From Malacoraja senta (Eukaryota): a DNA stretch of 64,000 bases. Position numbers and translations under genes: made by a program. Below the pieces are notes generated by a model, which saw only the letters and a list, made by a program, of their open reading frames with translations, did no database searches and had not been told where the DNA came from. The stretch covers positions 4,900,001-4,964,000 of the forward strand of contig CM075993.1 of NCBI GenBank assembly GCA_038087875.1. Reading direction: 5' to 3'. How positions within the stretch are numbered: the stretch's first letter is position 1; every line of letters starts with the position of its first letter. Of this stretch, positions 7,976-63,631 are shown one piece after another.

Positions 7976-8324
7976 GTTCACCCAGTGCTTGCACTGATTC
8001 CAACTGTTCATGTGAATAACAAAGTTGTATCAGAGGTAGACAAAAATGCTGGAGAAACTCAGCGGGTGCAGCAGCATCTATGGAGCGAAGGAAAGAGGCA
8101 ACGTTTCGGGTCGAAACCCTTCGCACCCGCTGAGTTTCTCCAGCATTTCTGTGTACCTGGGATTTTCCAGCATCTGCAGTTCCTCTTAAACAAAAAGTTG
8201 AATCAATGAACCAACTCGGGGCAGTTTGTGAACGTCCTCACCTTCATGAATGAATTAACGAGAGACCTTTAAGGAGAGTCCCAGAGCAATGTATAACCAA
8301 TACTGGAGATACCCAAAATAATGT

Positions 8325-11091: not shown

Positions 11092-11335
11092 ATTTCAGGT
11101 AGTCCCTGCTTTCTCCTTCTTTCCCCTCCCCTTCCCAGCTCTCCCACATCCCACTGTCTCCGCCTCTTCCTTTCTTCTTCCCGCCCCCCCCCCCCACCCT
11201 CACATCAGTCTGAAGAAGGGTCTCGACCCGAAACGTCGCCTATTTCCTTCGCTCCATAGATGCTGCCTCACCCGCTGAGTTTTTCCAGCATTTTTGACTC
11301 CCTTCGATTTTCCAGCATCTGCAGTTCCTTCTTAA
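11092..11335 (+). mobile_element. Penelope-like 3' terminal fragment with intact hammerhead core
   Basis: AATTTCAGGTAG ORF end and C-rich tract, then CTGAAGAAGGGTCTCGACCCGAAACGTC. Confidence 0.8.
11210..11237 (+). ncRNA. Minimal type-I hammerhead ribozyme motif (representative copy)
   Basis: CUGAAGA, A, stem II GGGU-CUCG-ACCC, GAAA, palindromic ACGU stem III, GUC cleavage triplet. Confidence 0.7.
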
Positions 11336-11666
11336 CCTGCAACAATGAGGATGTTACCCGTGCTGTCGCAACTCATTTCCCCACCAAAAACTATGAATAT
11401 ATTATGTAATATCCATATATACTAGATTCCACGACAATCTTTGCCACACTGCTCTTTCACACAGCCATTATACTTATCTTTAACATTCCAAGATTCCATT
11501 ATCATTAAGGTTCCAAGATGGCGCCCAACACAGGCGACTATCTGCCCGCTCGCCACAGAAGCAGATCCTCTTAGTTCTCTACTCCGACAGCAACATTTTA
11601 AACTTTAACTATGATCTTCTTAAACTCCTCTCAGATCAGTCCTTACTTCGACTCCTGGAAGTGTCA

Positions 11667-11874
11667 AGGGCCTGTCCCACTTACGCGATTTTCTTTCGGC
11701 GACATGTCGCGGGGTGACGCCTGTTTGGTCGTGAGTAGTCGCCCAAAGAGTCGTACCTTTTTCTGGTCGCCGCTGGATTTTCAACATGTTGAAGATTTTC
11801 GGCGACCTGCTGCGACGACTATGACGGGTGCCGGCAAGTCGCCGAAAAAAAATCGTGTAAGTGGGACAGGCCCT
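11667..11874. mobile_element. PIF/Harbinger-type MITE
   Basis: TIRs AGGGCCTGTCCCACTTAC(G/A)CGATTTT; flanks TCA/TTA. A truncated relative lies at 22765-22922. Confidence 0.8.
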
Positions 11875-12584
11875 TTATTCCCTTATCATGTACACTGTAA
11901 ATGGATCGACTGTAATCATGTATTGTCTTTCTGCTGACTGGAGAGCACGCAACAAAAAGCTTTTTGCACTGCACCTCTGTACTTGCCAGGTTTTGTCCCA
12001 CCCCCACTTCTCTTCCAGCTTTCTTCTCCCCCCCCCCCCAATCACAAATCGTCTGAAGAAGGGTCTTGCCCTGAAAAGGCACCTATCTATGTTCTCCAAA
12101 GATGGTGCCTGATCCACTGAGTTACTCCAGCACTTTGTGTCCCTTAAAAAAAAAAAAAAAAGTACATTATGAATTCGTCAAAGGCTGCTCACCCCAAATT
12201 AAAAAAACAAAAAATTGCTGGAAACACTTAGCAGGTCAGACAGCATCTGTGGAAAGAGAATCAAATTTCCAAGTTGAAAGCCCTTCGTGACACAATTGCT
12301 AAATGCTTATCACCGATTTTGAGCTGGATTCTCCTGGCAAGTAAAGGTCTCTGCTTTCAATTTAACCTCTGCCATCATCTCCCTTGGTGATCGTACACTA
12401 GTGCCTGTGAAGTGTCTGTGACTGCGAAAGCAGATTGCGAGCACTCGTAGCTTGAAGCTGGGAAAATGTACCTTTCCGGTAACCTTTCCGGGCCGTGGAA
12501 TGACAATGCTTCTGCCCTCTCCACAAGGTCAACAACAATTAGAATAATCAGCGTCGATTTCCCAGACATTCTCATGGAAATCAA

Positions 12585-13447: not shown

Positions 13448-14097
13448 AATGAAAAATATAGCACGGAAATAGGCCCTTCGGCCCACCAAAGATAGACACA
13501 AAAAGCTGGAGTAACTCAGCGGGACAGGCAACAACTCTGGAGAGGAGTGGATGGCGTTTCGGGTCGAGACCTTCGGCCCACCGGGTCCGCGCTGACCAGC
13601 CAACCCCGCACATTAATACTATCCTACACACACTGGCAACAATTTAACCAAGCCAATTAACCTACAAACCTGTACATCTGTGGAGGAAATGGACAAATGA
13701 TGTTTTGGATCGGGACCCTAACACGGACTGATGGTAGTAATGGGTGGAGAAAGCTGGAAAAGAGGGGGTAAGGTGGGAGGGCAAAGCTTTGCAAATGGTA
13801 GATGGATAAGATGAGGAAGGGTGGGGGGGTGGTTGACAGATGAGTGGAGTAAGTGACAAAAGCTAGTTGAAAAGGAGACAGAGGGGGTGTCAGATATCGA
13901 GAATAGGATGGAAATATACAGCTAGAGGGAGGAATATGGGATGGATTGGGGAGGGGAAAGGAACAGGGTGACTTTTATATTGCACAACAGCTTTGTGTAA
14001 GAAGGAACTGCAGATGCTGGTTTAAACCCAAGATAGACACAAAAAAAGTAATTCAGTGGGTTAAGTAAGGCAGCATCCCTGGAGAGAAGGAATGGGT

Positions 14098-14125
14098 GAC
14101 GTTTCGGGTCGAGACCCTTCTTCAG
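14098..14125 (-). ncRNA. Minimal hammerhead ribozyme motif, intact core
   Basis: Reverse complement reads GGT-CTGAAGA-A-GGGT-CTCG-ACCC-GAAA-CG-TC-ACC. Confidence 0.65.
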
Positions 14126-14946
14126 ACCAAAACACTTTATCGTATTGTAAGCAAATTGACTACCTGGAAGCCTAACGATTAAAATGTTGTTTTTTTAATG
14201 ATATCTGGATGCACAGCTTGTATTTGGCTTCAGCCATAACTACTCATGTTCTCCAAAGGATCGATTCTGCTCGGCTCTGCGCTGGATAGTGCAGGAGTTG
14301 GGAGGGGGGAGGGGACGGTACTTGGCTGAAGTGTCACCCTGACCCCATTACGGTCACTGCAGCCTGGCACCAGTGGCAGGCTGGGAGGGTGTTGCACTGA
14401 GTGTTCTGTTAAATTTCAGCTGCAAACAGGCTGGAGCCCTGCCTCAAACAGCGAGGGCAAAACCTGACACTGCAGAATACAGCCACAAATAAAGGAAGTT
14501 AACCACAGGCATAAAGGAAGAATTTGCATTTCTATCGAACTTTCCTTGACTCTGGAACTTTTAAGGCCTTCATTGTGTGAATGCCGTTTTGTGGTGTGGT
14601 CTACTGACCTTTGATCAGAAACTGGACTGAAATTGTTGACCTGCAATTGTAAACCTTCGCTGACCATTAATTCACATCTGACCCATTTTAGTTAGGTTTG
14701 GACTAGAGACACGGCATTAGAAGCCGACCCAAGTCGATTGAGTGCGATTTATCCATTCACAGTAGACACAAAATGTTGGAGTAACTCAGCGGGTTAGGCA
14801 GCATCTCTGGAGAAAAGGAATAGTTGATGTTTCGGGTCGAGACTTTTCCTTGACCAGTCTAATGCCGAGTTACTCTAGTATTTTGTGTCTATCTTCAGTG
14901 TAAACTGGCATCTGCTGTTCCTTCCTACACACTAGTTCTATGTTTA

Positions 14947-17004: not shown

Positions 17005-17805
17005 TAGTCATCCCTTCCCACCCAAACCACCCCCTCCCCTGGTACCTGCCCCTGCAACCGCAGAAGATGCAACACCTGTCGCTATACCTCCTCCATCGAC
17101 TCTGTCTATGGACACCGACATTCCTTCCAGGTTAGGCAGAGGTTCACTTGCATCTCCTCCAACCTCATCTATTTTGTAACCGCTGTTCAAGATGTGGACT
17201 CTTATACATTGGCGAGACCAAACGCAGATTGGGCGATCGTTTCGCTGAAACACCTTCGCTCAGCCCAACCTGATCTCCCAGTTGCTGGACACTTACATTT
17301 CACTGTACATCTTGTATGTGTATGTGACAAATAAAGTTGACTTTAATTCTCCTTCCCATTCCTACACAGACCTTTCTGTCCTCGGTCTCCTCCATTGTCA
17401 GAGTGAGGCTAAACGCATATTGGAGGAACAGCATCTCATATTTTGCTTGTGCAGCTTACAGCCCAGTGGCATGAATATTGATTTCTCTCACTTCAGGTAG
17501 CCTCGGCATTCCCTCTCTCTCTATCCGTCCCCCACCCAAGTCACACTAGTTTCTCATTTTCACCCTACAAACATCTGACAATGGCCCGTTTCCTCCATCA
17601 TCATTACTTTTTTGCATATCTTTCATTCATTGTTCTTCACATCTCCACATCACCATCTATATCTCTCGTTTCCCTTATCCCTAACCAGTGTGACCGGAAA
17701 CGTCACCCATTCCTTCTCTCCAAAGATGCTGCTTGTCCCGCTGAGTTACTCCAGCTTTTGGTGTCCATCTTCAGTTTAAACCAGCATCTGTAGTTCCTTT
17801 TTACA
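17005..17805 (+). mobile_element. Degenerate Penelope-like element (GIY-YIG remnant + terminal repeat)
   Basis: ..LLYIGETKRRLGDRF.., FNSPSHSYTDLSVLGLLHCQSEAKRILEEQHLIF. Confidence 0.82.
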
Positions 17806-22764: not shown

Positions 22765-25700
22765 AGGGCCTGTCCCACTTACGCAATTTTTTGGGCGATT
22801 TGCCAGCACCAGTCAAAGTCGCAGCAGGTTGCCAAAAATTTTCAACATATTGAAAATCCAGCAGCGACCAGAAAAAGGTACGACTTTTTGGGCGACTACT
22901 CATGACCATACAGGTGACATGTCCTTTGTGCACCTGGGGGGTGAGGCACGAGTTGGTTGGAGGATCTCCACAGTCTGCTCCAAGATTGCCATTCACAGGT
23001 CCAGGCAATAGTTTGTTTGTTTGTTTTTGCATTAGTTTATTGTCACGTGTACTTGAGGTACAGTGAAAAGCTGTTTAGTTGCGTGCTATCTAGTCAACGG
23101 AAAGACTATACATGATAACAATGAAGTCGTCCACAGTGTACGAGTAAAAGATAAAGGGAATAACGTTTAGTGCAAGATAAGTCCGATTAAAGATAGTCCA
23201 AGGGTGACCAATGTGGTAGATGGTTTGTCAGGATCGCTCTCTAGTTAGTGAGAGCATGGTTCAGCTGCCTGATCACAGCCAACAGATAGTCGGTCCCACT
23301 TCTGAGGATATAACAATCCCTGAATGTCCCTGTAGAGAGAGCACAGGGTGAAGAATTGTTCTATGAAGGCCTTCTGGAATCCTGTGCTACAGGGGCTAGA
23401 GTACTTCCTGGACACGGGTGGCAATGTTTTAATTTGACGTTTTAATTTAATGAGTATTTGTAAATCCAGAATTGAGAATTATGTTAATGTTGTGAATATT
23501 TTAAGATGAAGACGTAAAGCATTGTTAAATGCATTTCTTTTCCTCAGATGTTTGATGCGCTCAAAGTGAAGGCACAAAAGACTGCTCAGGCTCAGCAAGA
23601 GAGAGAATAAAGCTTGGATTCTGGGAGGTGGGGTGGGACAGAGCAAAACTACAGAACCACCCAGCAGAATGCTCGATTGTTAGGCCGAGTAATTCACCAA
23701 CCACAAATAAAGTCGGTCAACAATGTGAAGCAGATTACAATAGGTAAAGGGATGTGTTCTACGCTGCTCCTTGCAAACTTTTCCCACACCCTAAATCTAA
23801 TTCCAAAGCAGAAGTCACTGGAGGCCAGCTGCCCATTAGCAAAGCAGTCACGCAAACAAACAAAAAATCTGCCCTTTGAAGTGCAATAGAAAGTGAACAA
23901 GATTACCGCGATGGTCTTTTGATGTTGACTGCAGCACCTCAGACTCTGCAGTCAGTTTGTTATAAACCTCCACAAGGTAATTTTTTTTACAGCTCGATAA
24001 GAAATAACACAATGGCCAAGGGATATTTGTCGTGACCACACAACACTTGTTTTCTACCAGTAAACGTGTTTTAGGTTGGTAATCAAGTATTTTTGAAATG
24101 TTATAGGTAAACGTGACATGTGACATAAGGCATAAATTTCAAGAACTGATAACTTTGCAGATTATTGCACAAAGTCTGCACTTTGAACAGGATTCAGTTT
24201 TAAGCACAAATTAATGTGACTTAAATGGTTTCCAATAAAATGTAGCAACCAAAGGAGGCACCATTTTATTTGTAAAATACGACAAAATAATGTCAGCTTA
24301 ATTTGTTCGCCTGTCCAAGACAAGTGCGGCAGAGCTAAAGTCTTTAATGCGTTTTCATTGCCAATTAAATTAAGTTTATTTTCCTTGCTTGGCAATTCTA
24401 CTTCTGTGGAATACAGTTCAACAGCACCGCACCAGTCACCTTTACTCATGTTATCTCAGACAGTGTACACCTTCATATATCAAGAGTCAGGTGTCATTTA
24501 TACCTGGTTCAAAGCCAAAGTGCATATTTGACAGCCTGCAAACACAAAAATCCGACAGGGCTCATAAGGTTAATAGAACAGTCTAAGGGTGATGGAGGTC
24601 TCGACAAAACACTTTTGGAAGGATGAACCCAGGTGGATGATCAATGTTTTTAAATGTCTCCCTTTGTCCACTATGATTCATTGTTACCTTAATTATTGTT
24701 GGCTGGTATCAGGTTGGGAGCTGTGGGCTTCAGGAGGCAGAATGAGTTATTAATATTTACACTCCCCAACCAGCTGACTAGCCAAGACTAAGCTGCTCCC
24801 CAGCAAATACCACTGATAAAAGATAAAAGTTGGATTAGTTCCAACTTCGATCTGAGAACTCCAATCCACTCACAATTAGAGAGTAACTCGGTGGGACAGG
24901 CAGCATCTATGGATAGAAGGAATGGGTGACGTTCCAGCTCGAGATCATTCTTCAGACTGGAGAAGGGTCTCGACCCGGAACGTCACCAATTCCTTCTATC
25001 CAGAGATGCTGCCTGTCCCCCTTAATTGCAATTTGCTGTCCCAGATTTTGAACTATTTCCTAAAGGAAACATCTTTTCCATTTACCCTTTTTAAACCAGT
25101 TATGATTTTATACATACATGTCCATCAAACTTTCGCTCAATCTTTTTTTGCCCCAAGAACCATCCCAGCTTCTCTAATCTAATTCCGTTTAAATCTCTCG
25201 TCCCCGGAAACATTATGTTAAGTCCAAATACGACTGAAGTTCTGTCAATTGTTATTGCTGAGGGATGACTTCTTTATTGGATCCGAATCCTGCGTAGCTC
25301 CAGGTTGAAAACAGAAATCAATGCAAGCTTTTCCATTTTAGCTGCCTGGATTGCTACAAGATTATATTGTGAAAATACTAGACAGTGTATATTGACCCCA
25401 GTATTTAAAGGAAAACCAACCTCATCTGGCAATATTGGTATTCCAGTGATGCACAAAGTCAAATTGAGCAATCAGGGTTTAGGATTGTGTACGATCTTTT
25501 TTTTAAAATCCATCAACTATTATATTATAAAAGCTGAAAGGAAGGATTGTTGGAGGTTTTACACCCAGTAGCCCCATGCCTCAGACTATACTTAATTTCC
25601 ACCAAGACAAGCTTTCCCCACAATGCGTGAAAGATAATTCATCCAGTCTGCAATCACGTACATTTAATACGGAAATGCAACGGCACTCAAAGCAACACAG

Positions 25701-27729: not shown

Positions 27730-28965
27730 GCAGGAACTGCAGATGCTGGTTTACACCGAAGATAGACACAAATTGCAGGAGTAACTCAACGGGACAGGCA
27801 GCATCTCTGGAGAGAAGGAATAGGTAATGTTTAGACTGAAAGTCAGGGGAGGGGGAGAATAGAGATATGGAAGGGCGGGATGTGAAAACAACAGATTAAA
27901 GCAGATGATGCTAAGGAAATGTAGAATGGTTCACAGCTAGCTGAGGGGAAAGTGACAATGTGGCATACAATCAGTAATATTTAATCAGGACAGTAGAACT
28001 AGTCGGAGATCTAGTAGGAGGGAGGGAAGGACAGGGAAAGCAAGGGTTACTTGAAGTTAGAGAAATCAATATTCGTACCGCTGGGTTGTAAGCTACCCAA
28101 GCAAAATATGAAGATGGGTCTCGACACGAAACGTCACCCATTTCCTTCGCTCCATGATGCTGCCTCACCCGCTGAGTTTCTCCAGCATTTTTGTCTACAA
28201 GCAAAATATGAGGTGCTGTTCCTCCAATTTGTGTTGGGCCTCTTTTTGACAGTGGAGGCAGCCCTGGATTGAAAGGTCAGTATGAGAGTGGGAGGGGGAG
28301 TTAAAGTGTTTAGCAATCGGGAGATCACATAGGTCTAGGAGGACCGAGCGAAGGTGTTCATCGAAACGATCGCCGAGCCTGCGCTTGGTCTCGCCAATAT
28401 ATAGTCCAAACCTGGAACAGCGGATACAGTGGATGAGGTTGGTGGAGGTGCAAGTGATCCACTGCCTCACCTGAAAGGACTGTCAGGGTCCTTGAACAAA
28501 GTCGAGGGAGGAGGTATAGGGACAGGTGTTGCATCTCGTGTGGTTGCAGGGGAAAGTACCTGGGTAGAGGGTGGTTTGGGTGGGAAAGGATGAGTTAACC
28601 AGGGAGTTGCGGAGGGAATGGTCTCTGCGAAAAGGTAGACAAAAATGCTGGAGAAACTCAGCGGGTGAGGCAGCATCTATGGACCGAAGGAAAAACGTTT
28701 CGGGTCGACACCCTTATTCAGACTCTGCGAAAATGTATGGAGATGGGAAGACGTGGTCGGTGGTGGGCTCCTGTAGGAGGTGGCCAATTTGTCAGAGGAT
28801 TATGTGCTGTACGCGACGGCTGATTGCCGTGAAAGGTGAGGACTGGGGGGATTCTGTCCCTGTTGTGACTGAGGGGAGGGGGAGCAAGAGCGGAGCTGCT
28901 GGATACCGAGGAGACACGTGCGGGCGCCTCATCTATGATGGAAGAAGGGATTCACCGTTCCCTTT
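27730..28965 (-). mobile_element. Penelope-like element with nested Penelope terminal-repeat insertions
   Basis: TCTSTNLIHCIRCSRFGLYIGETKRRLGDRFDEHLRSV..KLEEQHLIFCL on the minus strand. Confidence 0.82.
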
Positions 28966-31407: not shown

Positions 31408-31654
31408 GATAGACACAAAATGCTGGAGTAACTCAGCGGAACAGGTAGCATCTCTGGAGAGAAGGAATGGGTGACATTTCGGGTCAAAACCCTTCGTCAG
31501 ACTGATCCGCCTGAAGAAGGATCTCGACCCGAAACGTCACCCATTCCTTCTCTCCAGAGATGCTGCCTGCCCCGCTGAGTTACTCCAGCATTTTGTGTCT
31601 CTCTTCGATTTAAACCAGCATCTGCAGTTCTTTCCTACACATTTTGTCTCCTCC
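31408..31654. mobile_element. Penelope-derived foldback insertion with 13-bp TSD
   Basis: TCCTCAAATGCTC at 31395-31407 and 31655-31667; back-to-back hammerhead motifs at the centre. Confidence 0.85.
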
Positions 31655-36714: not shown

Positions 36715-38670
36715 CTTGCATGAAAAAGAGAAAAAGTATTTCAGTTTCTGCAGTTTAAATTATGCAACTAACGTGTTACAATTAAGCCTTTGAACTAATT
36801 TTAAACATGTTTCCTTTCTTTGTCGTGCAGTTACTTTCATTACCTAAGAATACACGTTTCTAAACAGGAATATAAAACTTCAAGAAAAAAACAACATATT
36901 TTGGCCATTCAGCAGTCAACTAACCCGGCAACCATCAGGTGCAAGCCTGCCACCAAACCCCAACACATTTAAAGGGTTCCACTACATGGGTTTTCCATTA
37001 TATCATATATGCAATACCAATTGGCCAACAAGGCCACCACACAACAGGATGGATGCGATTTCCCTGGAGAAGCTGCCTGGAATGGACCATTTCAGTTACA
37101 ATGACTGATCTGACAGGCTGTTTTTCTTGGAGCCAAGGAGGAAGCCTGACAAATATAAAATTATGAGAGGCATCAATAAGGTTGACTGTAGGATACATTT
37201 CCTCATTACACATGTATATTAAACTAGAGGGCACAGGCATGGGGCTAAGAGATTTAGAGGAGATCTGAGGAAGAAATATTTCACTCAGAGGTTGGTTGGA
37301 ATCTGGGTATTGGAAACATTTAAATATATAGATGAACAAGGTATAGACGGCTATGGAACATGTGTGGGTACGAGCGATTAGAATGGGTAGTAAATTGATG
37401 GCTTGGCATGGTGGGATGAAGGGCTCTTTTCCATGTTGTTGAATCTATCTATGAATCTGTCAGGTGGATGCCAAAATTCAAGTATAGAGAATGCTCTTTC
37501 TAATGTTATCCAATCCTAGTTTAGCAATGAACACGTTTTCCCACATTGTTTGGGCACAGCAAGATTTGCACTATGTACACTTTCAGCTGCACAGGTGCAT
37601 TTTAAGTACAAATCATAATCGGCACCTTTCAACATATTTTATATAATCAGTCTCCTGTTGATAAAGTTCTCTTTTCTTTACATTGTTCGGGAAGGTAACA
37701 AATGTAGAGGCATTTATTTGCAGGGGCACAATGTTATTGACATAGGAATGATTCGCTTAAACTTGTATTGCATCATTAGGCACAGTAAATTTAACATAGT
37801 CTCACCAATGGAACCACGAGCAAACACTGTTTATTCACATAGCATAGAAACCCCATTTCCCCAATATTTTTTACTTATGCAATTAAAACACACAAACCTA
37901 GAAATCCCAAATTTGATTCCCAACCTGACTGAGCCAATTCAACTCGGGGTAGAATAAACTCAGATGAAGAGAACCCTGGGACAAAATTGCTTATTTCCTT
38001 TCACTCATTGACTGCTTTTAATGAACTGAAGGGAGAAAGGTTATGTTGATGAAATCACATCTCAGTACGAGTTATTAAGAATATAAATTTAAGGGAGATA
38101 AAAAATTGGGACTTTATAAAAAGGCATAATCAATCATGAAAGGACACAAAGTGCTGGAGTAACTCACAGGTCAGGCAGTATCTCTGGATAGGTGACATTT
38201 CGGGTTGAGACCTTCAAACAATTGGAGAGCCTTCTTTAGTCTGAAGAAGGGCCTCGACCTGAAACGTCACCTCCAGAGATGCTGCCTGAGGTACTCCAGC
38301 ACTTTGTGTCCTTTTGTGTATTAACCAGCATCTGCATTTCTTTGTTTCTACATGGTATGAACAATGGCTTAAATGTCACTCAACAAACATGCCTACAAGG
38401 GACACAATTTAAAATACAGTTCTTCTTGGCTCATTTGTCACCATCTCTCCCGCACAACACTGCTTTCTTCAGATTGATCGTATCTGCTAAGGGAGTTTGG
38501 AAAGCAATATTTAAGCCAAGTATAATACTCAAACCATATTTGATCCAACAAGGATCCTAATTTCAAAACAGTGATTTTAAAATTAGAATGTTTCAAAAAT
38601 ATTTTCAACATTTCAATTATGAAAGCTACATTGTGTGCCTCGAGGTAGAACATTTTACTGTAAATTATTA

Positions 38671-41083: not shown

Positions 41084-41303
41084 GATAGACACAAAAAGCT
41101 GGAGTAACTCAGCGGGACAGGTAGCATCTCTGGAGAGAAGGAATGGGAGACATTTTGGGTCGAGATTTCTTCAGACTGAAAAAGGGTCTCAACCCAAAAC
41201 ATCACCCATTCCTTCTATCCAGAGATGCTGCCTGTCCCGCTGAGTTACTCCAACCTTTTGTGTCTATCTTCGGTGTAAACCAGCATCTGCAGTTCCTTCC
41301 TAC
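41084..41303. mobile_element. Penelope-derived foldback insertion with 10-bp TSD
   Basis: ACATAATCAA at 41074-41083 and 41304-41313; inverted arms. Confidence 0.85.
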
Positions 41304-43667: not shown

Positions 43668-43820
43668 GGTACACAAAAATGCTGGAGAAACTCAGCGGGT
43701 GCAGCAGCATCTAAGGAGCGAAGGCATCCTTCGCTCCATAGATGCTGCTGCACCCGCTGAGTTTCTCCAGCATTTTTGTGTACCTTCAATTTTCCAGCAT
43801 CTGCAGTTCCTTCTTAAACA
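43668..43820. mobile_element. Penelope-derived foldback insertion with 14-bp TSD
   Basis: CTCTAGTAATCGTA at 43654-43667 and 43821-43834. Confidence 0.87.
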
Positions 43821-44014
43821 CTCTAGTAATCGTAACTTGGTTGCCTTTGGAACATGACCTTGATCTGTTAACACCACATGGTGGTTTGGCTGTATCAGCC
43901 ACCACATTCAAAAAAATGAATACACAAGCATTTTCACTCATCAGAACTAAAGTGAAAGTTAGTTATCTTTGATCCCAGGGTACTGTCTAATAAGTGTTAG
44001 ATCCCAGGGTACGT

Positions 44015-44042
44015 CTGAAGAAGGGTTTCGGCCCGAAACGTT
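44015..44042 (+). ncRNA. Minimal hammerhead ribozyme motif, UUCG-loop variant
   Basis: CTGAAGA-A-GGGT-TTCG-GCCC-GAAA-CG-TT. Confidence 0.65.
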
Positions 44043-47000
44043 ACCTATTTCCTTCGCTCCATAGATGCTGCTGCACCTGCTGAGTTTCTCCAGCATTTTT
44101 GTGTACCCACTGTCTAATAAGACTAGTCGAGCTGCTGATATTAAAGCTTCATCCAACACAAATCTTTAATGCATTCACCAAAAATAATGCTTTGAAGGTC
44201 AAATGAAGTATAAACATAATGCAACATTAACAACTGGGTATTGAGTTACTAGGATCCTTTTGACAATCTATTGGCCCAAGGTCAAGTGTACCGAGAGATG
44301 CCAGACAGGATTATTTTAAAACAACTGGACAAATAGAGTTACATTCTTTGTCATGTGAGAAAAACTGCTCCAGCTGGAGGAAAATTAATAAAGGATTCCC
44401 AATCTAGTGTCCATGCTAGAAAATGAGTGGGTAAACAACTGGCATGAAGTGAAATGGTGGACATGGTCAAAGTATTAGTATTTCCGACAGATTCTAAATT
44501 ATGAACACTGATTGTTTTCAGCAAAAGTATTTTAAAATAGCCTTGTAAAACAATTTTATGAAGAAAACAGGACAGCTCAATTTTACTTTATCTTATTCCC
44601 TTTCTTCTTCTGATAGACTTTAAACTTTAGAGATACAGCGAGGAAACAGGTCTTTCGGCCCACCCTGTACATTGACACTATCCCACACGAGGGGCAATTT
44701 ACAATCTTACCAAAGCAAACATGTACGTCTTTGGAATGTGGAAGGAAACCAGTGCACCCAGAGAAAACCTACACGGTCACAGGGTGAACATACAAACTCC
44801 ATACAAACAGCACCCGTATTCAGGATCCTAATCCGGGTCTCCGGCACTGTAATGCAGCAACTCTACCACTGCGCCACTGTGCCGCCCTCAATAGTAGCAA
44901 GTATAGCAGCAACTCTTTCAGATTAACAGGTCTATTGTAACAGCAGTGTGTCTGGAATCTGTCAAATGATGCTTGGGTACAGCCATCCATTGGCCATTTA
45001 GTGGTTGTGCGTATTTAAGCTTTACTGGAGAACAATCAGAAGCAGAATGCCAGCGCACTCCAAACAAAGTTTCACTCACTCAGACTTGAATTCTAAACTA
45101 GAACAATCGGTTTGCTTTATCGTACATTGCCTACACATAAGTATTCTTACAATGAAATTTGCTTAGTTCAAATAAGAAATAAATTCACAATCTAAAACGT
45201 ACTATAGAAAGGCAGGCTTGGGTAGTTTGAGTGCCCATCTTATTTGGTGCAAACATATGACAAACCTGTTCACAGTCCTTCAAGACCGTATGAAAATGTA
45301 GAGTTTAAAAATTCAATGATGCAAAGATGTTCAAAGCTCAAATTTAAAAAAGGAATATTACACTTGAAACAAGTTGGGCTTTAATAGGAGTCAGAACTAT
45401 CCTTGTACTTTAGGCATCAGCGTCAAACACTCCCAGGTTTAATACACCACTGCTGCAGCATTTAACAGAACTTGCTATCAGTATACATTTTGGAGTATAG
45501 CCATTTTACTGACAAGGTATCAGAGAACAGCCAGCAACACTGAAACTATATACAAGCAGCAGTGTGTTCGAAAAGGAAAATAAATATCTGAAACACAAAC
45601 TGGAGGGCAGCCAAGATGCTGCTTTTAAATGAACACTGAGGTACGACACTGAGTTAGTATAACCAAGAAAATCCCAAGTGTAGTCTCTCATCTGTGCTAT
45701 TACATCTTCTCAGAAAGAGCAATGATTATTTCAACTGAACAGAAACACATGGTTCCCAGTCACCAACCACTAGCACATTCACTGGGTGCACCAATGATGG
45801 CAAGGCACCAACGATCATTTCTTGCTGTCTCAAGGAGTGACAGAGGACCCTTTTTTAACTGTTCCAGGACTTTTGGGATAAGAATTCAGACCCTGCTAAA
45901 ACCTTGCATACACGATGAACTAACTCTGGACAGAACCAGCAGCAAAAGTTCAATGGTACAAAAAAAGACTACTGCAAATCAACTTGTCAAACGGAGCACT
46001 GTCGAACACCTTTGTGATTGTATGCAGCCAACTGTACAGGCAATTATCAATGGAACCATTCAGAAACATTAACTGCTTCTAGGAAAAAGCTCAAGCGACA
46101 TCTCCAGTTAAATAGATCTTCCAGTTTGTACAATTCTTAAGTTGTAATACTTGTCTGGTTAGACACAAGTGTACAAAGACCAGCAATTTAGAAGCTAATT
46201 AATTCAGCGACATAAACAGTCCAAAATACACATTAGTATTTCTTAATACTGAAATCCAGGGTTTAAAAACTCTCGATTGCAATTAAATCTCAACACAGTC
46301 GGTCATACTTTATTAGCAAAGTATGTTTTGCAACATACAAGGAATTTGATTTGCCATACAGTCATACTACCAGTGTACCAAGAACAAAATCCTGGTTTCA
46401 TAGCTGCATTAAAATTGTTTCCAGCATTTGGATGCTTTCCCTTCCAGTTCTGCAAGATCTCTGCAGCTAGAGACATGTTCAGCCAAGCTTGCAGTTCCAA
46501 GGCTTCAACTTTCAAAGTACTTAGCAATTTTTAATCCTATACCTGGGTGGTAAAGTGTTGAGAAATTTACTGTATTGTTCAACAACAATGTTGATTTATA
46601 AAGACATTACTTGGACAGCACTATCCTACTCTTCATAATTATTAATTTCTCATTTCTTTCAGATTAAAGATGATATCAGTTTTAACCAACAACACCAAGC
46701 AATATCAGACCTACAGGTTTACACATGGGTTACCTACAGAAACTTCCCTTGGTTTCGGGAGATCATATTCCACAATTCAGATTAAAAAATAGAACACAGA
46801 ACAATACAGCACAGGAATAGGCCCTTTGGTCTGCAATGTCTGTTGCCAAACGTGATGCCAAGTTACATTATTCTCCTCTGCCTGACTGTGATCCACATCC
46901 TGCATATTCAAGGCCTCTTTAACAGCCTCTTAAATGCTACTATTATATATGCCTCCACCATGACCCTTGGCAGTCCATTCCAGGCATCCACCACTCTGCG

Positions 47001-47586
47001 TAAAGAAACGTACCCTGCACATCTCCATTAAACCTTCCCCCTCTGACCTTAAATGACTGTGACATTTCCACCTGTTGGAAAAAGGTTTTGACCATCTCCG
47101 AATATATGTCTCAATTTTACACACTTCAATCAGGTTGCCCTACACTTCCTTATAGCTAATTCCCTCTAATCTAGGTAGCCTCTTCTGCACCCACTCCAAA
47201 ACCCCCACATCTTTCCTGTAGTGGGGCGACCAGAACTGCACTCAAAACATCAATTGCAGCCCAAGCAACATTTTATAAATATGCAATATTACTTCTTGAC
47301 TCTTTTATCCAATGCCCCGACCGATGAAGGCAAGCATACCATACACCTTTTTTACATAATCTCCTGTGTTGCCACTTTCAGATAGCAATAGACTTAGATC
47401 CAAAGATCATCACTGCTCTCAAGGCTCTTGTCATTAACTGTGTACTTTCTCATTACATTCAACTCCCCAAAATGAAACACCTCGCACTTGCCCAGATTAA
47501 ATGCCCAAGTGCCATCTCCCCGCCCATATCTGTAACTGATCGATATCCTGCTGTATCCGTTGATAGCCTTCTTCACTCTCTATAGC

Positions 47587-48743
47587 ACTGCCCTGAGCTG
47601 GTTCATCTCCTACCTCAAAGGTAGGAGTTTCTCGACTAACATAGGCAACTCTTTCTCCTCCCCAGCTAATCTCTGCTGTGGGGTTCCACAAGGTTCCATC
47701 CTTGGCCCCATTCTCTTCTCCCTGTATATGCTCCCCTTAGGCCAAGTCATTGAAAGGCACGGCATTTCCTTTCATTGCTACGCAGACGATACACAACTCT
47801 ATCTCCCCCTGAAGCCCAAAAACCAATCAAATCTGTTTAACCTTACCCACTGCCTCGAGAATATAAAGTGTTGGATGGCCCAGAACTTCCTCCAACTAAA
47901 CGAGAGTAAGTCTGAGGTCATCCTTCTCGGCCCCTCGGACTCAATCAAAATGATAGCAGGCAGCCTTGGAAGCCTTATCCCACTACTCAAACCTCACGTC
48001 AAAAACCTTGGCGTGATATTTGACTCAGCACTGAAATTTGACAAACAAGTCAATGCCGTGGTAAAAGCTAGCTTCTTTCAGCTTCGGACGATAGCTAAAA
48101 TAAAACAATTCCTCCAGTTTGATGACCTCGAAAAGATCATCCACACATTCATCTCCTCCCGCCTAGATTACTGCAACTCCCTTTACACTGGCATCAGCCA
48201 ATCTTCCCTGTCCCGCCTGCAACTGGTCCAAAACGCCGCAGCGAGACTCCTGACGGGCACCCGAAAAAGGGACCACATCACCCCGATCCTGGCCTCTCTC
48301 CACTGGCTCCCTGTGCGGTTCCGTATAAACTTCAAGATCCTCCTCCATGTCTACAAAGCCCTCAATGGGCTTGCCCCCACCTACATAAAAAGTCTTCTCA
48401 CCCACCACTCCACCTCCAGGCCCCTCAGATCAGCCGACGGGGTTGCTGAATATCCCACGGTCTAGGCATAAGCTCAGGGGCAACCGCGCCTTTGCGGTTG
48501 CAGCCCCTAGACTGTGGAACAGCATCCCCTTTCCCATCAGAACTGCCCCCTCCATCGACTCTTTTAAGTCAAGACTAAAGACTTATCTATACTCCCAAGC
48601 CTTTCCTGACGTCCTCTGAGTGAGGGCTACATGTATATATGTACATAGTTTGTTTTGTTTGTGCTATTCTTATAACAAATGTAAAGCACTTTGGCCAACG
48701 AGAGTTGTTTTTTAAATGTGCTATATAAATATATGTGACTTGA
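47587..48743 (+). mobile_element. L2 LINE, 5'-truncated, near-intact RT C-terminus
   Basis: GVPQGSILGP, YADDTQLY and SRLDYCNSL motifs; one frameshift near 48438; L2 tail ending TGACTTGAC; TSD CTATAGC at 47580-47586 and 48744-48750. Confidence 0.92.
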
Positions 48744-55281: not shown

Positions 55282-56215
55282 TGAAAGGAAAAGTGACAAT
55301 GCTCGCGGACTTTGTGCAAAAAACAAACAAACAAACTGCAAACAGAATGGAAACAGAGATGCTGCACATGGAGAATGTGCAGACACCGTACAGACAGCAG
55401 CAGCAGAGGTCAGGATCGAACCCCTATCTCTGGTGCTCTGAGGCAACAGCTGCGCCACTCTCCCGCCCTTAAATGTTAATGCTTTTTTATCTTTCCACAG
55501 ATGCTACTTTGCCTGCAGGGTAATTCCAACATTTTCTGATTTGATTTCAGATATTCAACATACGCAGGTATTTTTAATGTTCAGGTAGGAAGCTCTCTAG
55601 CCCAAGGGAACAAGGAGTTTGCACGGGATGCTATCGTTTGTATCTCAACAAACATTCATTAATAATGTTTCTGGCATCTTGCTGTGTGTACATTAGTTGG
55701 GTGGTTTGTTTATTGAACAACAAATGAGGCAGTGCCTGCATGCAGGAAGTGCTAAAAAATTATCAACCCCCGCCCCCCACCTGTGTTCACCTATTGCCTG
55801 ACATGCTTTGTTATGCCCCTCATATCATGGCTATGCAATTTACATATTCAGAGACCATAAGCGATACAACATAAATGCAAATTTATTCTGTTAAACTAAA
55901 TAAAAAAAACAATTTTAATGCACTGTATATTTGTCCTTTACTCATTAACAGTTTTATCTATAGCACACAATTCCTGTAAGTGTCAAACCTACTTCCAATA
56001 TATATTTTTCCATTGCACTCTGTTGATAACACATTTATAGAACAGCATTGTCACTGAAACATCGTACTTCACAAGGACCCAGTGACTCCAGAAATAATTT
56101 TCTGACAGGATATGTTTCTCAGGCGCACATCAGCAACATTTTTTTGAACTTTGACTTATTTTGCAAATTTTGGGATTTTAATTACTCTGCTTAGCGTACA
56201 GGGTGCACAAGAACC

Positions 56216-56429
56216 TGGAGTAACTCAGTGGGACAGACAGCATCTCTGGAGAGAGGCAATGGGTGACGTTTCGGGTCGAGACCCTTCTTCAGACAGTCTG
56301 AAGAAGGGTCTCGACCTAAAATGTCACCCATTCATTTTCTCCAGAGATGCTGCCTGTCCCGCTGAGTTACTCCAGCATTTTGTGTCTATCTTCGGTTTAA
56401 ACCAGCATCCGCAGTTCCTTCCTACACAC
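56216..56429. mobile_element. Penelope-derived foldback with back-to-back hammerhead motifs
   Basis: Centre reads ..CTTCTTCAGAC A GTCTGAAGAAG..; flanks GCACAAGA(A/G)CCTG. Confidence 0.85.
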
Positions 56430-59400
56430 GCACAAGAGCCTGACGGAACCAATGCTAAAGTATAGAGAGACAATTTACTGACACCCCTACTGTGCTGGGA
56501 ACCTGGCACAAACCCCTCCCCATCACTCTGCCAGGAACCTGATGCAAATTCAGCAGCAAATCATCTCACAGCTCGGGGTGAAGAAGCTGCCTGTGGAGGC
56601 TGGTGTCGGACGGGATGCACTGAACAAACCAGCAGCTCCATGCACGGATGTGGGACCCAGGACTACACCCAGGCCAGAGGGTTGCGTGCATCCCAGGGCA
56701 CTGACTAGCAGTGGTCAAGAGGCCACACTGATCCTACCATTTCCATCTTCACCACCCATTGAAAGTGATGGAAGCTGCTGGCTTTTTGGCTACAGACCTT
56801 TCCACAGCGATCACCGTTGAGTTTATCACTGAAGCAATCTTCAAAATGGGGTGAGCTAAGTCCTTAAACTGTTGGAGATGCAAGGAAATGCAGGAGCTGG
56901 TTTACCAAAAAAATACACATAGTGCTGGAGTAAATAAGCAGGTCAGACAGCATCTCTGGAGAACATTTGTCTTAAAAAAGGTCCTGATGGGAAATAATAC
57001 AAATCCCTTTTGCTTGAATTTGCCTCTAAACCCTAATCCACATATGTATCCAAATGTTTTTTATAATTCATAACTGTATCCATTTCTATAGCTTCTGCTT
57101 ATTCCAGATATGGGCCGTCCTCTGAGTGAGAAAGGTATCCCTGAGGTCCCTCTTAAATCTCTCCTCTCTCACAAGCCTGTGTCCTCTATTTTTAGAATCC
57201 TCTACCTTGGTAAAAAATTGTTCACTTTATCCATGCACTTCATAATGTGCACTTCAATAAAGTCACCCTTCAACCTCCAATGCTCCGGAGAAAAAAATCC
57301 GAGCATATATAATCTCTATCTCACGCCCGTAAGTCCAGGCAGTATCCTGGTGATCTTAGTATTAAAGTTATACAATTTGTATGGTAAGTGATTGAATTTA
57401 GACGCTCTAATTAAGATGACAGCTGATGACACAAAAAACACGGATGTTAAGGAGGATGTAATGACACGCTTCAGTCAACCCCTGTATGGATATTAAAAAA
57501 ACACAAAGTGCTCAAGTAACTCAGCAGGTCAGGCAGCATCTGTGGAGAACATGGCTAGGAGACATTTCGGGTCGGGACCCTTCAGATTGAAGAAGAGTCC
57601 CGAGCTGAAACGTCACCTATCCATGTTCCCCTGCCTGACCTGCTGAGTTACTCCAGCACTTTCTATCATTTTTAGCAAACTAGCATCTGCAGTTCTTTGT
57701 TTCTACATTTTCCCTTTGTGGATATAACAACTTCTTGTCAAAACATGCTGAAACATTCCAACACTGCGACTCCGGCACTGACTGCAATCCTACTCACTTT
57801 CCTGATTTCGGTGTTCCTGACCCCAGCTCCAGTTCTGACCACGTGCCTGGCCCATATTCCAGAACACTGCTCCAGCCTTCCTGCACTCCCAGCCCTTGCC
57901 TCTGGATGTCCTCATCTCGCACACTGATTCTGCATTCTGGCACAGAACACCAAATGCAATCCAGCACATGGCATGGAGGGGAGCTCTCATTGAAACTCTC
58001 TGGATAACAAAAGGCCTAGATAGAGTGGACGTGGAAAGGATGTTTCTAGTAATGGGAGAGTCACATAAACATTGAACACAGCCTCAGAATAAAAGGACAT
58101 ACCTTCAGAATAGAGTTGATGAAGAATTTTATTTTCCAGAGGGTGGTGAATCTGTGGAATTCATTACCACAGATGGCGGTGGAGGCCAAGTTGTAGGGTA
58201 CTTCTAAATCAGAGATTGGTAGATTTACGATTAGTAAGGGTGTCAATGGTTACAGGGGAAGGCAGGAGAATGGGGTTGAGAGGGTAAAATAGATCAGCCA
58301 CGATTGAATGATGAAGAAGACTTGATGGGCTGTATGGCCCCATTCTCCTATGTTCATTCACCACAGAAGAGGGCTCTGGAGGAAATTGTAATGAGTACCA
58401 ACCCTCCCAGAAAAATATAGAATCATACAGCATGGAAACAGGCCCTTCGGCCCAACATTTCCATGTCGTCCAAGATGCCCCATCTAAGCTTGTCCCATTT
58501 GCCTGCATTTTGTGTTCATCCCTCTAAAACTTTCCTACCCATGTATCTGTCCAAATGTAGAGTGAGCAACATGACTCGTCTCACAGATGCATGAATCCCC
58601 AGACAGTACGTCAGTAGAGTGGGCTAAGTGTAATTAATGGTGGGGAGACAGCAGTTGCCTGTAGGAAGATATAAATGAAGTAGCAGATGGGCAGTGAGCA
58701 AATGGAATTACACTCAGAGAAGTGTGAAGTAATACAGTGAGGAGTGGCTGGGACTGACTGAACAAAAGGCATAGAAAACACAATAAATAATAGGATACTA
58801 AAATAATGTGTAAAGAAAAGGGGATCTTGGATCGTGTGTCCATAGATACAAGGATAATAATAATAATATCTTTTATTGTCATTGAACATAGGTGCAACGA
58901 GATTTGGTATGCAGCTTCCATCCGATGTCATAACTTAAACAACTAATACAATTTAGATACCCCGAGAAACATGATTTATAAAAAAGAACAGTAAAAGTGT
59001 ATAAAGTGCAAATAGGTCTGTGCCGGGTCAATGTGCGACGAGAATAGGTCAGGAGGACAAAATGGTTAAGAAGGCATAAGGTATACATTTTTAGCTGGTT
59101 TCTAGAATATAAGGGAAGTTTGTCTGGAACTGTATAAAGCACCAACCACATCAGATTTCTATCAACTTTCAGTACAAGGTGCAACTACCCTAGAGGGGGA
59201 AAGAAGAGATTCACAGGTATGTTGCTTGAACTGAAATAATTTTAGTCATGGGAAAATACGAGGAAAGTTTGAGAGAATACCCTTTGGAATACCCTAGGCT
59301 GAGAAGATATTTGTGGTATATGGAATTATATGAGGCCAAGATGAAGTGTGTAGGAAGGAACTACTTCCATCAGCAAATGGTTCCACACCAAGGAGGAAGT

Positions 59401-59990: not shown

Positions 59991-62919
59991 AAAGTCAATC
60001 TCTCTCAAAGGTATATTTCTACTGAAGTTTGAGTTTGGTTTCATGAAGTGGTGGGTCAAACACAACCCCACATTGTCAATAGACAAAGGCACTTTGTCTA
60101 GAAGTTAATAGCTGGTCATTAGTACAAGACTTACTATAAAGAAGCATTGTACCCAACATCCAAACTCATTCCATTGACTACATGTTGGTTGAATTCTTGT
60201 AAACAATCACCAATCTTCTAATGTTTTTAGATTAGGCTGTCTGTTCTGATTATTTCATTTTTATTGCATTCTTGTGGCCACATTTTTGTTCTGTACATTA
60301 CTAAATAGTATAAATGATTCCAGCATCCCAGCATCTGCGATCTCATGTCTCCAGAATAAAATCTAGCTGGAAAAGCATAATTTTTGCCAGGATGAATATA
60401 ACATTCTTTTATGTAATACGCTAGTGGAAGTTTTAAACCATGTGTTAAACATGGTTCTGCAGTGTTGCAACTCCACCATGTTCAGTTTCCGTGATCTAAT
60501 ACAGCATTCTGTTCTGTCGGTACGCGTGAAATGTATCATTTATTTATTCATTTCATTCCACTTCAGGGAGAATTCCCACTGTTTCAAAACTTCGTCTCAA
60601 GATTAAAATAGAAAATGCAATGAGTTTAAAAAAAAAGATCTTCTTGAAACAGTTCTCTGAGCTTTCAAGTTGTAGTGAAACAGTGTGAGAGGAATGTGTG
60701 AAGCATCTGCTGCCAACACAGGAAAGAGAAGTGGTTGAGGAAGATGAGCCAAGGCAATTGCTTTGATCTTTGGCAGTGTGTCACAATGAAGCATCCTCTT
60801 ACTGAATGACGGTCCACGAGCTTTGGAGACTAGACCTTTTTCTTTGTGTTGGAAGGAACTACAGATGCTGGTTTACACTGAACAAAGACACTAAATGCTG
60901 GAATAACTCAGTGGGACAGGCAGCATCTCTAGAGAGAAAGAATGGGTGACGTTTTAGGTCAGACTGATGAAGGGTCTCGACCCAAAATGTCACCTATTCC
61001 TTCTCTCCAGAGACGAGGCCTTTTTCTTTATTTGGTGGTCAAGAGAAGTTGAAATCATCAGAAACAATTCAAGTTGTGACAAAGAACTGCAGACATTTGT
61101 ATTTTCTAACAATGAAAGAAGTGGGGAATAGATTGCAGAGAGGAAGAATTAAATTGAGGCAAGAGAAAGTAAGTACAGTTCAGCTCTATCAGCCATTCCA
61201 CAAATGCCATTTGTAAGGCTATTGGAAGAGGATGGAGAAATGGGATTAGTTGGATTGCTTTTGCATAGAGCATTTGTGCATTATTGGAAGAAGAGTAGGG
61301 GAGAATGGTCCTGACCTATAAAGTTATCTGTCCATTCTCTCCACAAATGCTGCCCGACCTGCTGAGTTCCTCCAGCACAAGATTCGAGCATCTGCAGTTC
61401 CTTGTGTCTCGAGTTTCATTTGATGTCCTGGCCTACATTTATCCCTCAACCAACATCAAATTGAGTCTTAAGAAAAGTCCAGAGCTGAAAAGTCACTTAT
61501 CCACTTTCTCCAGAGATGCTGCCTGACTCGCTGAGTTACTCCAGCATTTTGTGTCTGTCAGAATATCAAGTTGCTTATTAATGCTGTTTGAAGATGTTGT
61601 GAAATGGAAACCCATCGGCCACATTTACTACATTCCAGCAGTGACTGACCACATTAAGCCACGAATTAGCTGCGATTTGAAGTAGCAAAAGATAAATAAA
61701 TCCCACATTTGTTTTTGTTTTTGTCTGAAGATAGATGCTGCCTGATCCACTTTGTGTTCTGTACAAGATTTTTTTAGTTTGTTTCAAGTTTGACAAATGC
61801 ATTCTTTCCCTGCTAATCTCATCCTAAATCTTCCACATTTAATGAGCTATATCAGTGTCTCTTTGTTTGTTCGGCTTCACAGAACTGGTCTCAACCGTAG
61901 AAAGTGGTACCTAGTGTTTGAGGGAAAGCTTCAATAATTGATGGGGCTCTTTTCTCTTGGTGAATTTCAATAATTAATCAGGAGGGCTGGGGTTACTCAC
62001 TTGGGATGGTGTCAGGAATGTTGATCTGACTTTAACGCCTCATAAAATGCAGAGAGAAAATCAGTCAAATACGTTGCATCTGATCAAGTTCTCCTTTCTC
62101 CTGTTCCCTGTTCTCATATTTTTTTTGCTGTCAAATAGATAAAATGAGCACTCACAGTCTTTTTACCAGGGTAAGATTTCTAAAGCTAGAGGGTAGACAC
62201 AAAATGCTGGAGTAACTCCGCGGGACAGCAGCATCTCTGGAGAGAAGGAATGGGTGACGTTTTGGGTCAAGACCTCTTCTTCAGAGTGTCTAAAGCAAGA
62301 GGGCATGGACTTAATGTGAGAGGGGAGGGAATTCAGGGGAAACCTTTTCACTCAGAGGTTAGTCTGTACCTGGAATGAGCTGCCAGGGGAAGCTATAGAA
62401 GTGGATGCAATTACAACTTTCAATAGACATTTGGGACGAACAGCCATGATCACAATGAATGGCGGTGCTGGCTCGAAGGGCCGAATGGCCTCCGCCTGCA
62501 CCTATTTTCTCTGACAGATATATGGATAGGAAGGGTTTAGAGGGATATGGGCCAAATGCAGGTATGTAGGACTAGCCCTGAATGCCAACTTGGTCAGCAT
62601 GGACAAAGTGGGCTGAAGGGCCTGTTTTTGTGCTGTACAGCCTCATGACTTCAAATGGAAACTCACTGTTCAATGTTAATAATCAGTCATGTTCATATTG
62701 ACCATATTCTGGAAGGTGCCTCGGGCAAAAACAAGTGAATATTTTGGAGGAATTGATACCAATGCAGATTTACATTTAAAAAAAACAACGACTGGCTGAG
62801 GCTCTTCCAACATTTTCTGTTCCTGGATATTTTGGGGAGTTGGGGATGGTATTCATGTGTCCGAAATAAATGTCGAGAAAGCTAAAGCAAAATCAAAATG
62901 ACAATCTGATGACGACACC

Positions 62920-63328
62920 ACGCAATAACCAACTTGATCTCCCGGCAGCTCAGCACTTCAACTCCTCCTTCCATTCAAAATCCGACCTTTCTGGCCTGGG
63001 CCTCCTTCCTGGCCAGAGTGAGGCCCACCGTAAATTGGAGGAGCAGCACCTCATATTTCACTTGGGTAGTTTACACCCCAGCCATATGAAAATTGTCTTC
63101 TCTAATTTCAGGTAGTCCCTGCTTTCTCCTCCCCTTCCCAGCTCTCCCTCAGCCCACTCTTCCTTTCTTCTTCCCCCCCCCCCCCACCTTCACATCAGTC
63201 TGAAGAAGTGTCTCGACCCGAAACGTTGCCTATTTCCTTCGCTCCATAGATGCTGCCTCACTCGCTGAGTTTCTCCAGCATTTTTGTCTACCTTCGATTT
63301 TCCAGCATCTGCAGTTCCTTCTTAAACA
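62920..63328 (+). mobile_element. Penelope-like element 3' end
   Basis: AQHFNSSFHSKSDLSGLGLL..KLEEQHLIFHLGSLHP, followed by a terminal repeat with a hammerhead-like motif near 63200. Confidence 0.85.
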
Positions 63329-63631
63329 TAACCACTAAATTAATTAATGGATCTGTCTGTTTTCACGCTGCCTCAGTAGTTCATTTTCTCATTTTTAATA
63401 CAGAAATTTTTAACAGCAATGTTTGGATGCTCAGCCATAAAAATCATCTTTGTCAAGTTAATCATATCTTCATCTAATGCCAGCACATACTGTAAGCTTT
63501 AAGCAAGAGCAGAGGATAATGAACAGAAGCAGCTGTTACAGCAATTACTTCAGCATCAGATAAGAGCATTTAACCCATTACAATAAAGTGACTGATTGAG
63601 GAACTAATGTTGAAGTACAGATGTATACTCA

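Follow-up and report, generated by a model that had tools for sequence, protein, structure and literature searches.

Within the 64,000-nt stretch of the skate Malacoraja senta analysed here (contig CM075993.1; hereafter the window, to which all coordinates refer), many short insertions consist of two inverted copies of one repeat that meet, again and again, beside a hammerhead ribozyme motif. The insertion at 56218-56429 raises the question of what places the junction there. A first-pass annotation had attributed it to the ribozyme structure or its cut site, and had regarded the palindromes as a propagating, MITE-like class. The palindromes are head-to-head pseudo-LTR (pLTR) ends of a Penelope-like element (PLE), and each was likely assembled afresh on insertion rather than multiplied as a unit. 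The explanation favoured here, with a probability of about 0.6, is that the two strands of the nicked target both prime at the two start sites of Penelope and that both cDNAs stop near the same point, where they anneal.

Positions on the repeat are given as h numbers, h1 being the C with which the core motif CTGA opens. From hammerhead numbering, compared with PMC4209133, the ribozyme is predicted to cut between h28 and h29. The event sample is small (14-16 events in one 64-kb window), with 60 mapped segments; the axis set (n = 14) excludes the events at 5540 and 7697, in which one arm extends far upstream.

The palindromes and their parent element

The focal element comprises a minus-strand arm, a single centre base and a plus-strand arm, enclosed by a 13-bp direct repeat with one mismatch:

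56205-56217: left copy of the target-site duplication (TSD), 13 bp, one mismatch to the right copy; its inner end resembles a continuation of the element (7/10)
56218-56294, minus strand: short arm, subfamily A pLTR, h-1 to h75
56265-56292, minus strand: intact minimal hammerhead core; cut predicted between 56265 and 56264 from hammerhead numbering
56295: symmetry centre, with arm ends h-1 and h-2, about 29 nt upstream of either predicted cut site
56295-56427, plus strand: long arm, h-2 to h130
56298-56325, plus strand: hammerhead core in decay, with CpG-type changes and without the conserved G of GAAA
56390-56427, plus strand: PLE 'tail', the approximately 36-38 nt separating short and long ends
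56430-56442: right TSD copy, preceded by a 2-nt filler (56428-56429)

The element thus begins at 56218 and not, as first annotated, at 56216, since 56216-56217 belongs to the duplication. The palindrome arms 56206-56294 and 56296-56384 are 87% complementary, and as RNA the palindrome is predicted to form a single hairpin of -132 kcal/mol (z -16.6) that none of 200 shuffled sequences equalled. No Rfam family was matched at the gathering threshold, and a sequence-pattern scan of metagenomes and viral contigs returned no loci; the 26 and 21 loci obtained with a shorter pattern were dropped, all being chance-length matches of at most 33 nt.

The end of a GIY-YIG endonuclease (EN), a pyrimidine-rich UTR and the pLTR unit are continuous at 5575-5769 plus 5866-6050, at 17200-17500 and at 62923-63115. 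Two parental 3' ends in the window are:

62923-63327, plus strand: parent 3' end, subfamily B; end of the GIY-YIG ORF (stop 63113-63115), pyrimidine-rich UTR ending in CAG at 63196-63198, core from 63200, long end
17200-17805, plus strand: parent 3' end, subfamily A; end of the GIY-YIG ORF, UTR, core with an internal deletion, long end

The EN fragment P0001 matches Pfam GIY-YIG with an E-value of 0.0025, its 18.5 bits lying below the cut-off of 22.6; 25 of 27 candidates passed in its homologue search, and the best named matches are skate and shark proteins. Because the EN end and UTR run into the unit, with this GIY-YIG match and these skate and shark relatives, the unit is identified as the pLTR of an endonuclease-bearing (EN+) PLE, and the EN-UTR-pLTR continuity bears out the Penelope origin proposed at first. 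The C-terminal GIY-YIG domain upstream of the repeat, the minimal hammerhead within the pLTR, the inverted truncated copy at the 5' end and the 30-40-bp tail on one side are features of such elements, and each of them is present here. No RT part of a PLE lies within the 64-kb window; in the relative P0006, for which Pfam called GIY-YIG only, an RT-like YIDD motif was seen upstream by eye. Judging by the EN motif, the parent may be Poseidon-like. A LINE-type fragment lies at 47536-48465 (RVT_1, E 1.4e-15), and a LINE-type segment on the minus strand at 97-639 is presumably a CR1-type C-terminus.

Three subfamilies (A, B and C) are about 20-25% apart. Of 14 pairs, 13 have both arms in one subfamily and one pair is tied; the overall distance between partners (12.4%, against 11.8% to other events) is uninformative on shared templates, since partners are no closer than other events.

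Head-to-head arms are present at all 10 sites at which the first-pass annotation had listed inverted Penelope repeats. Six further head-to-head events (5540, 6340, 7697, 8123, 14850 and 43725), three of them with duplications, bring the total to 16. In every pair of the window the minus arm lies on the left and the plus arm on the right. The family occupies 6321 of the 64000 bases (approximately 10%), and most insertions are pLTR only, 140-250 bp long. Besides the focal element, the following were mapped:

2161-2403: palindrome of subfamily B in which a segment is repeated at the h5/h9 junction; duplication of 10 bp
5540-6253: twin-priming-type insertion, with an inverted tail-only arm at 5540-5570 (h96-126) and a long arm that comprises EN, UTR and core and ends at h91-96; the 16-bp duplication is perfect (5524-5539/6254-6269)
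6275-6369: palindrome of subfamily A whose axis lies on the natural micro-palindrome h43-45
7571-7977: asymmetric pair; the 6-nt microhomology CTTCAG links the long arm, which stops at h1, to the place where the UTR begins in the other arm
8034-8190: asymmetric pair, inner ends h6 and h60; 12-bp duplication
9899-10235: palindrome of subfamily C with T as centre base (h0); a B copy is nested at 10096-10215
10755-10918: palindrome of subfamily A with stem II as its axis; duplication of 18 bp
14764-14930: asymmetric or internally deleted pair, h6-12 and h64
24881-25022: subfamily A palindrome, centre A at h0; two rare variants common to both arms (in 0/36 and 1/37 other copies)
31408-31654: subfamily A palindrome, inner ends h-3/h1 plus filler; 13-bp duplication
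38143-38352: subfamily C-type palindrome, complex junction ending at h0; overlapping 9-11-nt deletion in both arms
41088-41303: palindrome of subfamily A with A as centre base (h0); the right arm is the long one
43668-43820: subfamily B palindrome without core, axis h36/37; 14-bp duplication
57501-57707: palindrome of subfamily C with A as centre base (h0); the right arm is the long one
60846-61009: subfamily A palindrome, centre A at h0, 13-nt core deletion in the long arm only; 20-bp duplication
44013-44107, plus strand: single-arm copy starting at h-1, 13-bp duplication; likewise 28632-28724, 62195-62285, 61465-61559 and 13994-14128

The four direct repeats cited earlier hold against a control of 2000 random flank pairs (10737-10754/10919-10936, 31395-31407/31655-31667, 41074-41087/41304-41317 and 56205-56217/56430-56442; p<=0.007). 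Repeats above chance were also found at 2280 and 60963 (p<=0.007) and, weakly, at 57585 (p 0.04), whereas 9989, 24956 and 38220 have none by the same control. The view that each palindrome is one integration event is therefore supported for the seven of 10 examples having a duplication (six with p<=0.007). Duplications measure 10-20 bp rather than 10-16 bp. The reported long/short asymmetry of the arms recurs across the mapped segments, with outer ends at h85-100 in 24 of 60 and at h122-131 in 22 of 60.

Three copies (10096-10215, 28109-28198 and 6275-6369) lie inside or beside others of the same family, among them a B copy in the tail of a C palindrome and a B copy within another copy's endonuclease region. 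The single-arm insertion at 44013 is preceded (43970-44013) by a 13-nt copy of nearby upstream target, a templated filler. The arm at 31511-31654 extends 13 nt beyond the usual long end; its pLTR frame is open from the core on, and in that frame the Anolis element PAc and the relative P0006 have an ATG at h4-6 where AAG stands here.

Position of the inner ends relative to the ribozyme

Eight of the 14 axes lie at h-3 to +1, about 29 nt upstream of the predicted cut site, at a natural CAG-T-CTG micro-palindrome. Within the window, breakpoints are thus non-uniform on the consensus: eight of 14 in one 5-nt bin has p ~1e-7 under uniformity and 2.5e-6 after allowing for 19 bins, and a strict count (6/14) gives p 4e-5. 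The statement that junctions fall at or within the hammerhead motif agrees with this for the 10 palindromes first listed, eight lying at the 5' edge of the core (h-3 to +1) and two, 2280 (h5/h9) and 10865 (stem II), inside it.

Segment starts (n = 60) show the same preference. Twenty-four fall at h-3 to +2, or 22 when two that continue into the UTR are set aside; 12 fall at h3-20, four at h21-26, 10 beyond h31 and one at the cut site. The remaining nine extend upstream past h-3, which indicates that longer templates are also used. Single-arm copies with duplications of their own (28724, 44013 and 62285) begin at the same inner point as the palindrome arms, which makes the clustering a feature of cDNA ends, not of palindromes. 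In two arms, 11091-11335 (20-bp duplication with three mismatches) and 7698, the start lies no more than 8 nt from the stop codon of the ORF, at (C/T)TTCAG-GTAG, and the UTR start is possibly a second preferred inner end.

Contigs from related species (runs X18 and X19) and from a same-species run (X1) were mapped onto the subfamily B copy (62880-63350). Three runs carry an 'RNA?' label that is a guess, one being flagged as probably DNA, and since only contigs were mapped the boundaries are those of insertions rather than RNA starts. Among the rows listed, loose ends with unrelated flanks occur at 63197 (h-2) in 30 contigs of X18 and 16 of X19; 3' ends lie at 63292-63293 and 63328-63330, and the gap of about 36 nt between these outer ends is the PLE tail. 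None of the 24 loose-end rows listed, beyond which there are 1186 more, lies at the cut site, none of six listed for X1 lies at 63197, and no strand-switch joint at h0 is among the 15 of 66 joints listed. Depth steps were excluded as evidence because other subfamilies join only over the core and a poly-C tract lowers coverage.

That cleavage or folding of the ribozyme sets the axis is very improbable in the light of these positions. The axis does adjoin the motif, one axis lies at stem II, and the 5' core and stem II are missing from five copies; however, none of the 14 axes falls at h28/29, and the sole segment start there (1/60) comes from a copy that has a UTR but a deleted core. The arms continue across the cut site, implying an uncut template, and RT arriving from the 3' side stops beyond the whole core, past the fold. 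In vitro, moreover, cleavage can be dispensed with, and in Anolis no RNA ends were seen at the cut site (PMC11167929). A role of ribozyme structure in fixing the stop is therefore weakly supported at best, the stem II axis at 10865 and the five copies without 5' core and stem II being what speaks for it.

The five copies are those at 17690, 60950-60963 (minus strand), 27835 (minus strand), 30890 and 54770. The copy at 17690 and the long arm of 60963 appear to bear the same 13-nt deletion between GA microhomologies, which may reflect recurrent RT skipping or a deleted source lineage.

The motif does occur back to back on opposite strands, as first described, but it is mostly decayed: an intact core remains in three of 20 arms and in both arms of none of 10 palindromes. 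Together with the computed cost of 35 kcal/mol for forcing the core open in the focal palindrome RNA, this argues against working ribozymes on both strands. The cut site is not what shapes insertions here.

Origin of the palindromes

The junction recurs at a short feature of the parent sequence, in which a pyrimidine tract is followed by CAG-T-CTGA, giving a 3-4-bp micro-palindrome centred on h0. The resulting 7-nt junction (CAG-A-CTG/CAG-T-CTG) is found in subfamily A (24956, 41176 and 60963) and in subfamily C (9989, 57585 and 38220), with both centre bases. Parent micro-palindromes underlie 10 of the 14 axes (eight at h0, one at stem II and one at h44).

The favoured reading would explain these features as follows. 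The palindromes would be 5'-truncated head-to-head pLTR insertions, formed anew through two priming events, one per nicked target strand. A common stopping point a little upstream of the core is likely for both cDNAs; with their ends at h-2 or h-3, they would anneal through CAG-T-CTG with one central mismatch, which could be repaired either way. The shared stop would be the template's 5' end, at about the A of CAG, within an initiator-like TCAGTC that is also splice-acceptor-like, and the stumps would be run-off copies. We infer from the sequence two separate cDNAs, their annealing with mismatch repair and the cause of the shared stop; the junction spot likely marks a fixed start of the copied RNA, though the motif behind the initiator reading is short and common. 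Initiator consensus sequences are of the TCAGTC type, and +1 would be h-2; the initiator reading consequently fits the modal inner end better than an acceptor does. Near the putative start, sequences resembling TATA and DPE elements can be made out by eye, but they are weak and carry no weight here.

Opposite segments within one TSD, the mark of twin-primed inversion, are present here. At 5540 the tail-only arm stops at h96, where the primer region of the other arm begins (h91-96), and the segments abut without overlap; this is one of 16 head-to-head events, the others overlapping partly or fully. Two cDNAs are also indicated by the asymmetric pairs 8123 (h6/h60) and 7697, by the deletion confined to the long arm at 60963, and by 41176 and 57585, where a centre A with the long arm on the right is a base that fold-back of the long arm could not supply. 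Against this, the overlap of most arms demands strand displacement or a second RNA, and four of six centre bases (9989, 38220, 60963 and 24956) and the focal junction fit fold-back of a single cDNA equally.

Fold-back is one competitor, though unlikely as the general route. It supposes a single priming at the long end, after which the cDNA snaps back at the micro-palindrome and is copied as DNA, the second arm being joined by microhomology or by endonuclease resolution. The 10 axes on micro-palindromes accord with it, as do the rare variants shared by both arms at 24956 and the shared deletion at 38220, which gene conversion would also explain. The favoured reading is in keeping with the match of short-type ends to the duplicated target at 74 of 160 positions, against a background of 25%, and with the common subfamily of partner arms; microhomology of this kind is, however, also expected from repair after fold-back. 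Arkhipova et al. (2013, PMC3846280) interpreted junction palindromes as products of self-priming, with an antisense strand as the template, and the tail is ascribed to EN resolution (PMC8557442). Yet fold-back cannot yield the asymmetric or non-overlapping arms of 5540, 7697 and 8123, nor the centre base at 41176 and 57585; single-arm copies share the short end site and the inner start; and the snap-back requires a 1-3-nt loop on a 3-4-bp stem. The two-cDNA and fold-back routes may both operate.

A variant that alters only the 'why here' step, and is also improbable, has splicing set the shared stop, with CAG as a 3' splice acceptor and RT halting at bound acceptor factors or at an exon-junction hairpin. 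A pyrimidine tract and CAG are present in UTR-bearing copies, clearly in four of eight rows with exact CAGT; the ORF end bears (C/T)TTCAG, the reverse complement of the core start; and one contig from a run guessed to be RNA jumps from 63060 to 63198 (X19, depth 140). The Drosophila virilis Penelope intron ends 4 nt before the core (PMC4209133; PMC2377424) and YAG lies just upstream of several other PLE hammerheads (PMC4209133 Fig. S3). However, none of the UTR-reaching copies in the window is exon-joined, no GT..AG joint is among the 15 of 66 listed, ends cluster at h-2/-1 rather than at h0 or h-3, and the donor site could not be fixed. Folding of hypothetical exon-joined junctions of subfamily B gave a small gain in self-dimer stability (-9.3 vs -7.7 kcal/mol).

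Propagation of a short non-autonomous master, either a SINE- or retrozyme-like unit from h-2 or a palindromic one equivalent to the MITE-like class first proposed, is a still weaker candidate. It would account for the very high density, for an identical junction in five to six events, for the apparent copying of decayed templates (24956 and 38220) and for head-to-tail units of 145-165 nt in related-species contigs. Recurrence of identical junctions had been named as the sign of a propagating master; the junction does recur, but it does so across subfamilies, in both polarities, with both centre bases and with differing outer ends, and so does not point to one. Short arms form no clade, lying 13.0% apart and 11.8% from long arms of other events, a comparison insensitive to a young, perfectly symmetric master, and the window holds no head-to-tail tandem unit. 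A palindromic, MITE-like master is thus unlikely, with variable TSDs and mostly dead cores also against it, while a short single-arm master may have been a source.

MITEs are defined by the short, fixed-length TSD of a DNA transposase. Classification as MITEs was rejected on account of the variable TSDs of 10-20 bp, the unpaired tail on one arm, the variable sizes and ends, and the identity of the ends as PLE pLTR rather than DNA transposon. Unlike the Penelope palindromes, the segments at 3219-3527 and 11666-11875, with 44-48-nt terminal inverted repeats starting GGCCTGTCCCACT-like, look like true MITEs. Of the first-pass interpretation, the Penelope origin, a single integration for each palindrome with a duplication and the non-random breakpoints beside the ribozyme are supported; the cut site and the MITE class are not.

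The X18 and X19 contigs run from the long end through pyrimidine-rich linkers of 16-34 nt into 63193-63200, at a depth of up to 759, and one linker type is common to two organisms. These head-to-tail units are possibly retrozyme-like arrays or circles derived from this pLTR. Assignment of the window insertions to non-LTR retrozymes was rejected, head-to-tail units with a complete hammerhead being absent.

Extending the two-cDNA reading, we tentatively suggest, though with considerable doubt, that in elasmobranchs the 5' end of Penelope RNA is fixed two bases ahead of the core; dual priming at the two internal start sites would then give self-annealing 'strong-stop' cDNAs and hence palindromes, whose centre would rebuild the pyrimidine-CAG-TC start or acceptor signal, so that stumps could seed stumps. 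If so, thousands of copies would form a nucleotide-level fossil record of the second-strand step of PLEs and of why they keep an intron.

Comparison with known systems

As an element, the family is ordinary PLE debris, abundant as it is, and its value is mechanistic. The completion of PLE integration and the formation of inverted pLTRs are stated to be an open question (PMC11167929; PMC3846280). The stumps offer countable tests of twin against self-priming, namely the centre base relative to the side of the long arm, abutting tail-only arms and a common inner end.

Twin-primed L1 segments do not overlap, whereas most pairs here overlap fully; the abutting geometry is that of 5540. In L1 twin priming (Ostertag and Kazazian 2001, as summarized in PMC2246262), both ends of the break prime on the RNA, producing an inversion inside one duplication. 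Poseidon of Anolis (PAc) is close in its biochemistry: its protein nicks and extends both target strands, two internal RT start sites define the tail, and ribozyme mutants insert normally (Frangieh et al. 2024, PMC11167929). The two outer ends 30-40 nt apart, the nicking and extension of both strands and the uncut RNA template are shared with the skate element; PAc differs in starting at a non-homologous site, whereas the short ends here have target microhomology, and inner ends and inverted joins are not treated in the available sections of that paper.

With the minimal hammerheads that Cervera and de la Pena (2014, PMC4209133) described in metazoan PLEs, the hammerhead here shares the extra base before stem II, the palindromic 2-bp helix III and a short helix I. 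That paper already notes pairs lying on opposite strands at distances of 100-700 bp, and the portions consulted contain no elasmobranch example and no mapping of breakpoints. The Fugu PLE hammerhead has a micro-palindrome, UUCAG-AA-CUGAA, at its 5' edge (PMC4209133 Fig. S3). On the strength of such motifs, teleosts may have the same junction bias. Animal non-LTR retrozymes are likewise short, hammerhead-bearing, PLE-derived units, but they are head-to-tail tandems, unlike the head-to-head, mostly core-dead units of the window (PMC7229834; bioRxiv 10.64898/2026.07.22.740005).

No mapping of PLE inner ends to an acceptor or initiator site, and no application of twin priming to PLEs, was found in the accessible literature, most subscription papers lying outside its scope. 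The closest likeness is to EN+ PLE insertions, whose described anatomy includes the head-to-head inverted pLTR, a 30-40-bp tail on one arm, an enclosing TSD, a junction palindrome and 5' microhomology (Arkhipova et al. 2013, PMC3846280; Craig et al. 2021, PMC8557442), so that the inverted terminal segments noted at first are known PLE anatomy. Compared with those insertions, the skate copies are mostly pLTR only, very dense and have inner ends on one 5-nt spot, and their TSDs are 10-20 bp long as against 8-10 bp in A. vaga. The inverted pLTR, the tail, the TSD, junction palindromes and facing hammerheads are thus known, and what seems to be new is a fixed inner end at a splice-acceptor- or initiator-like site.
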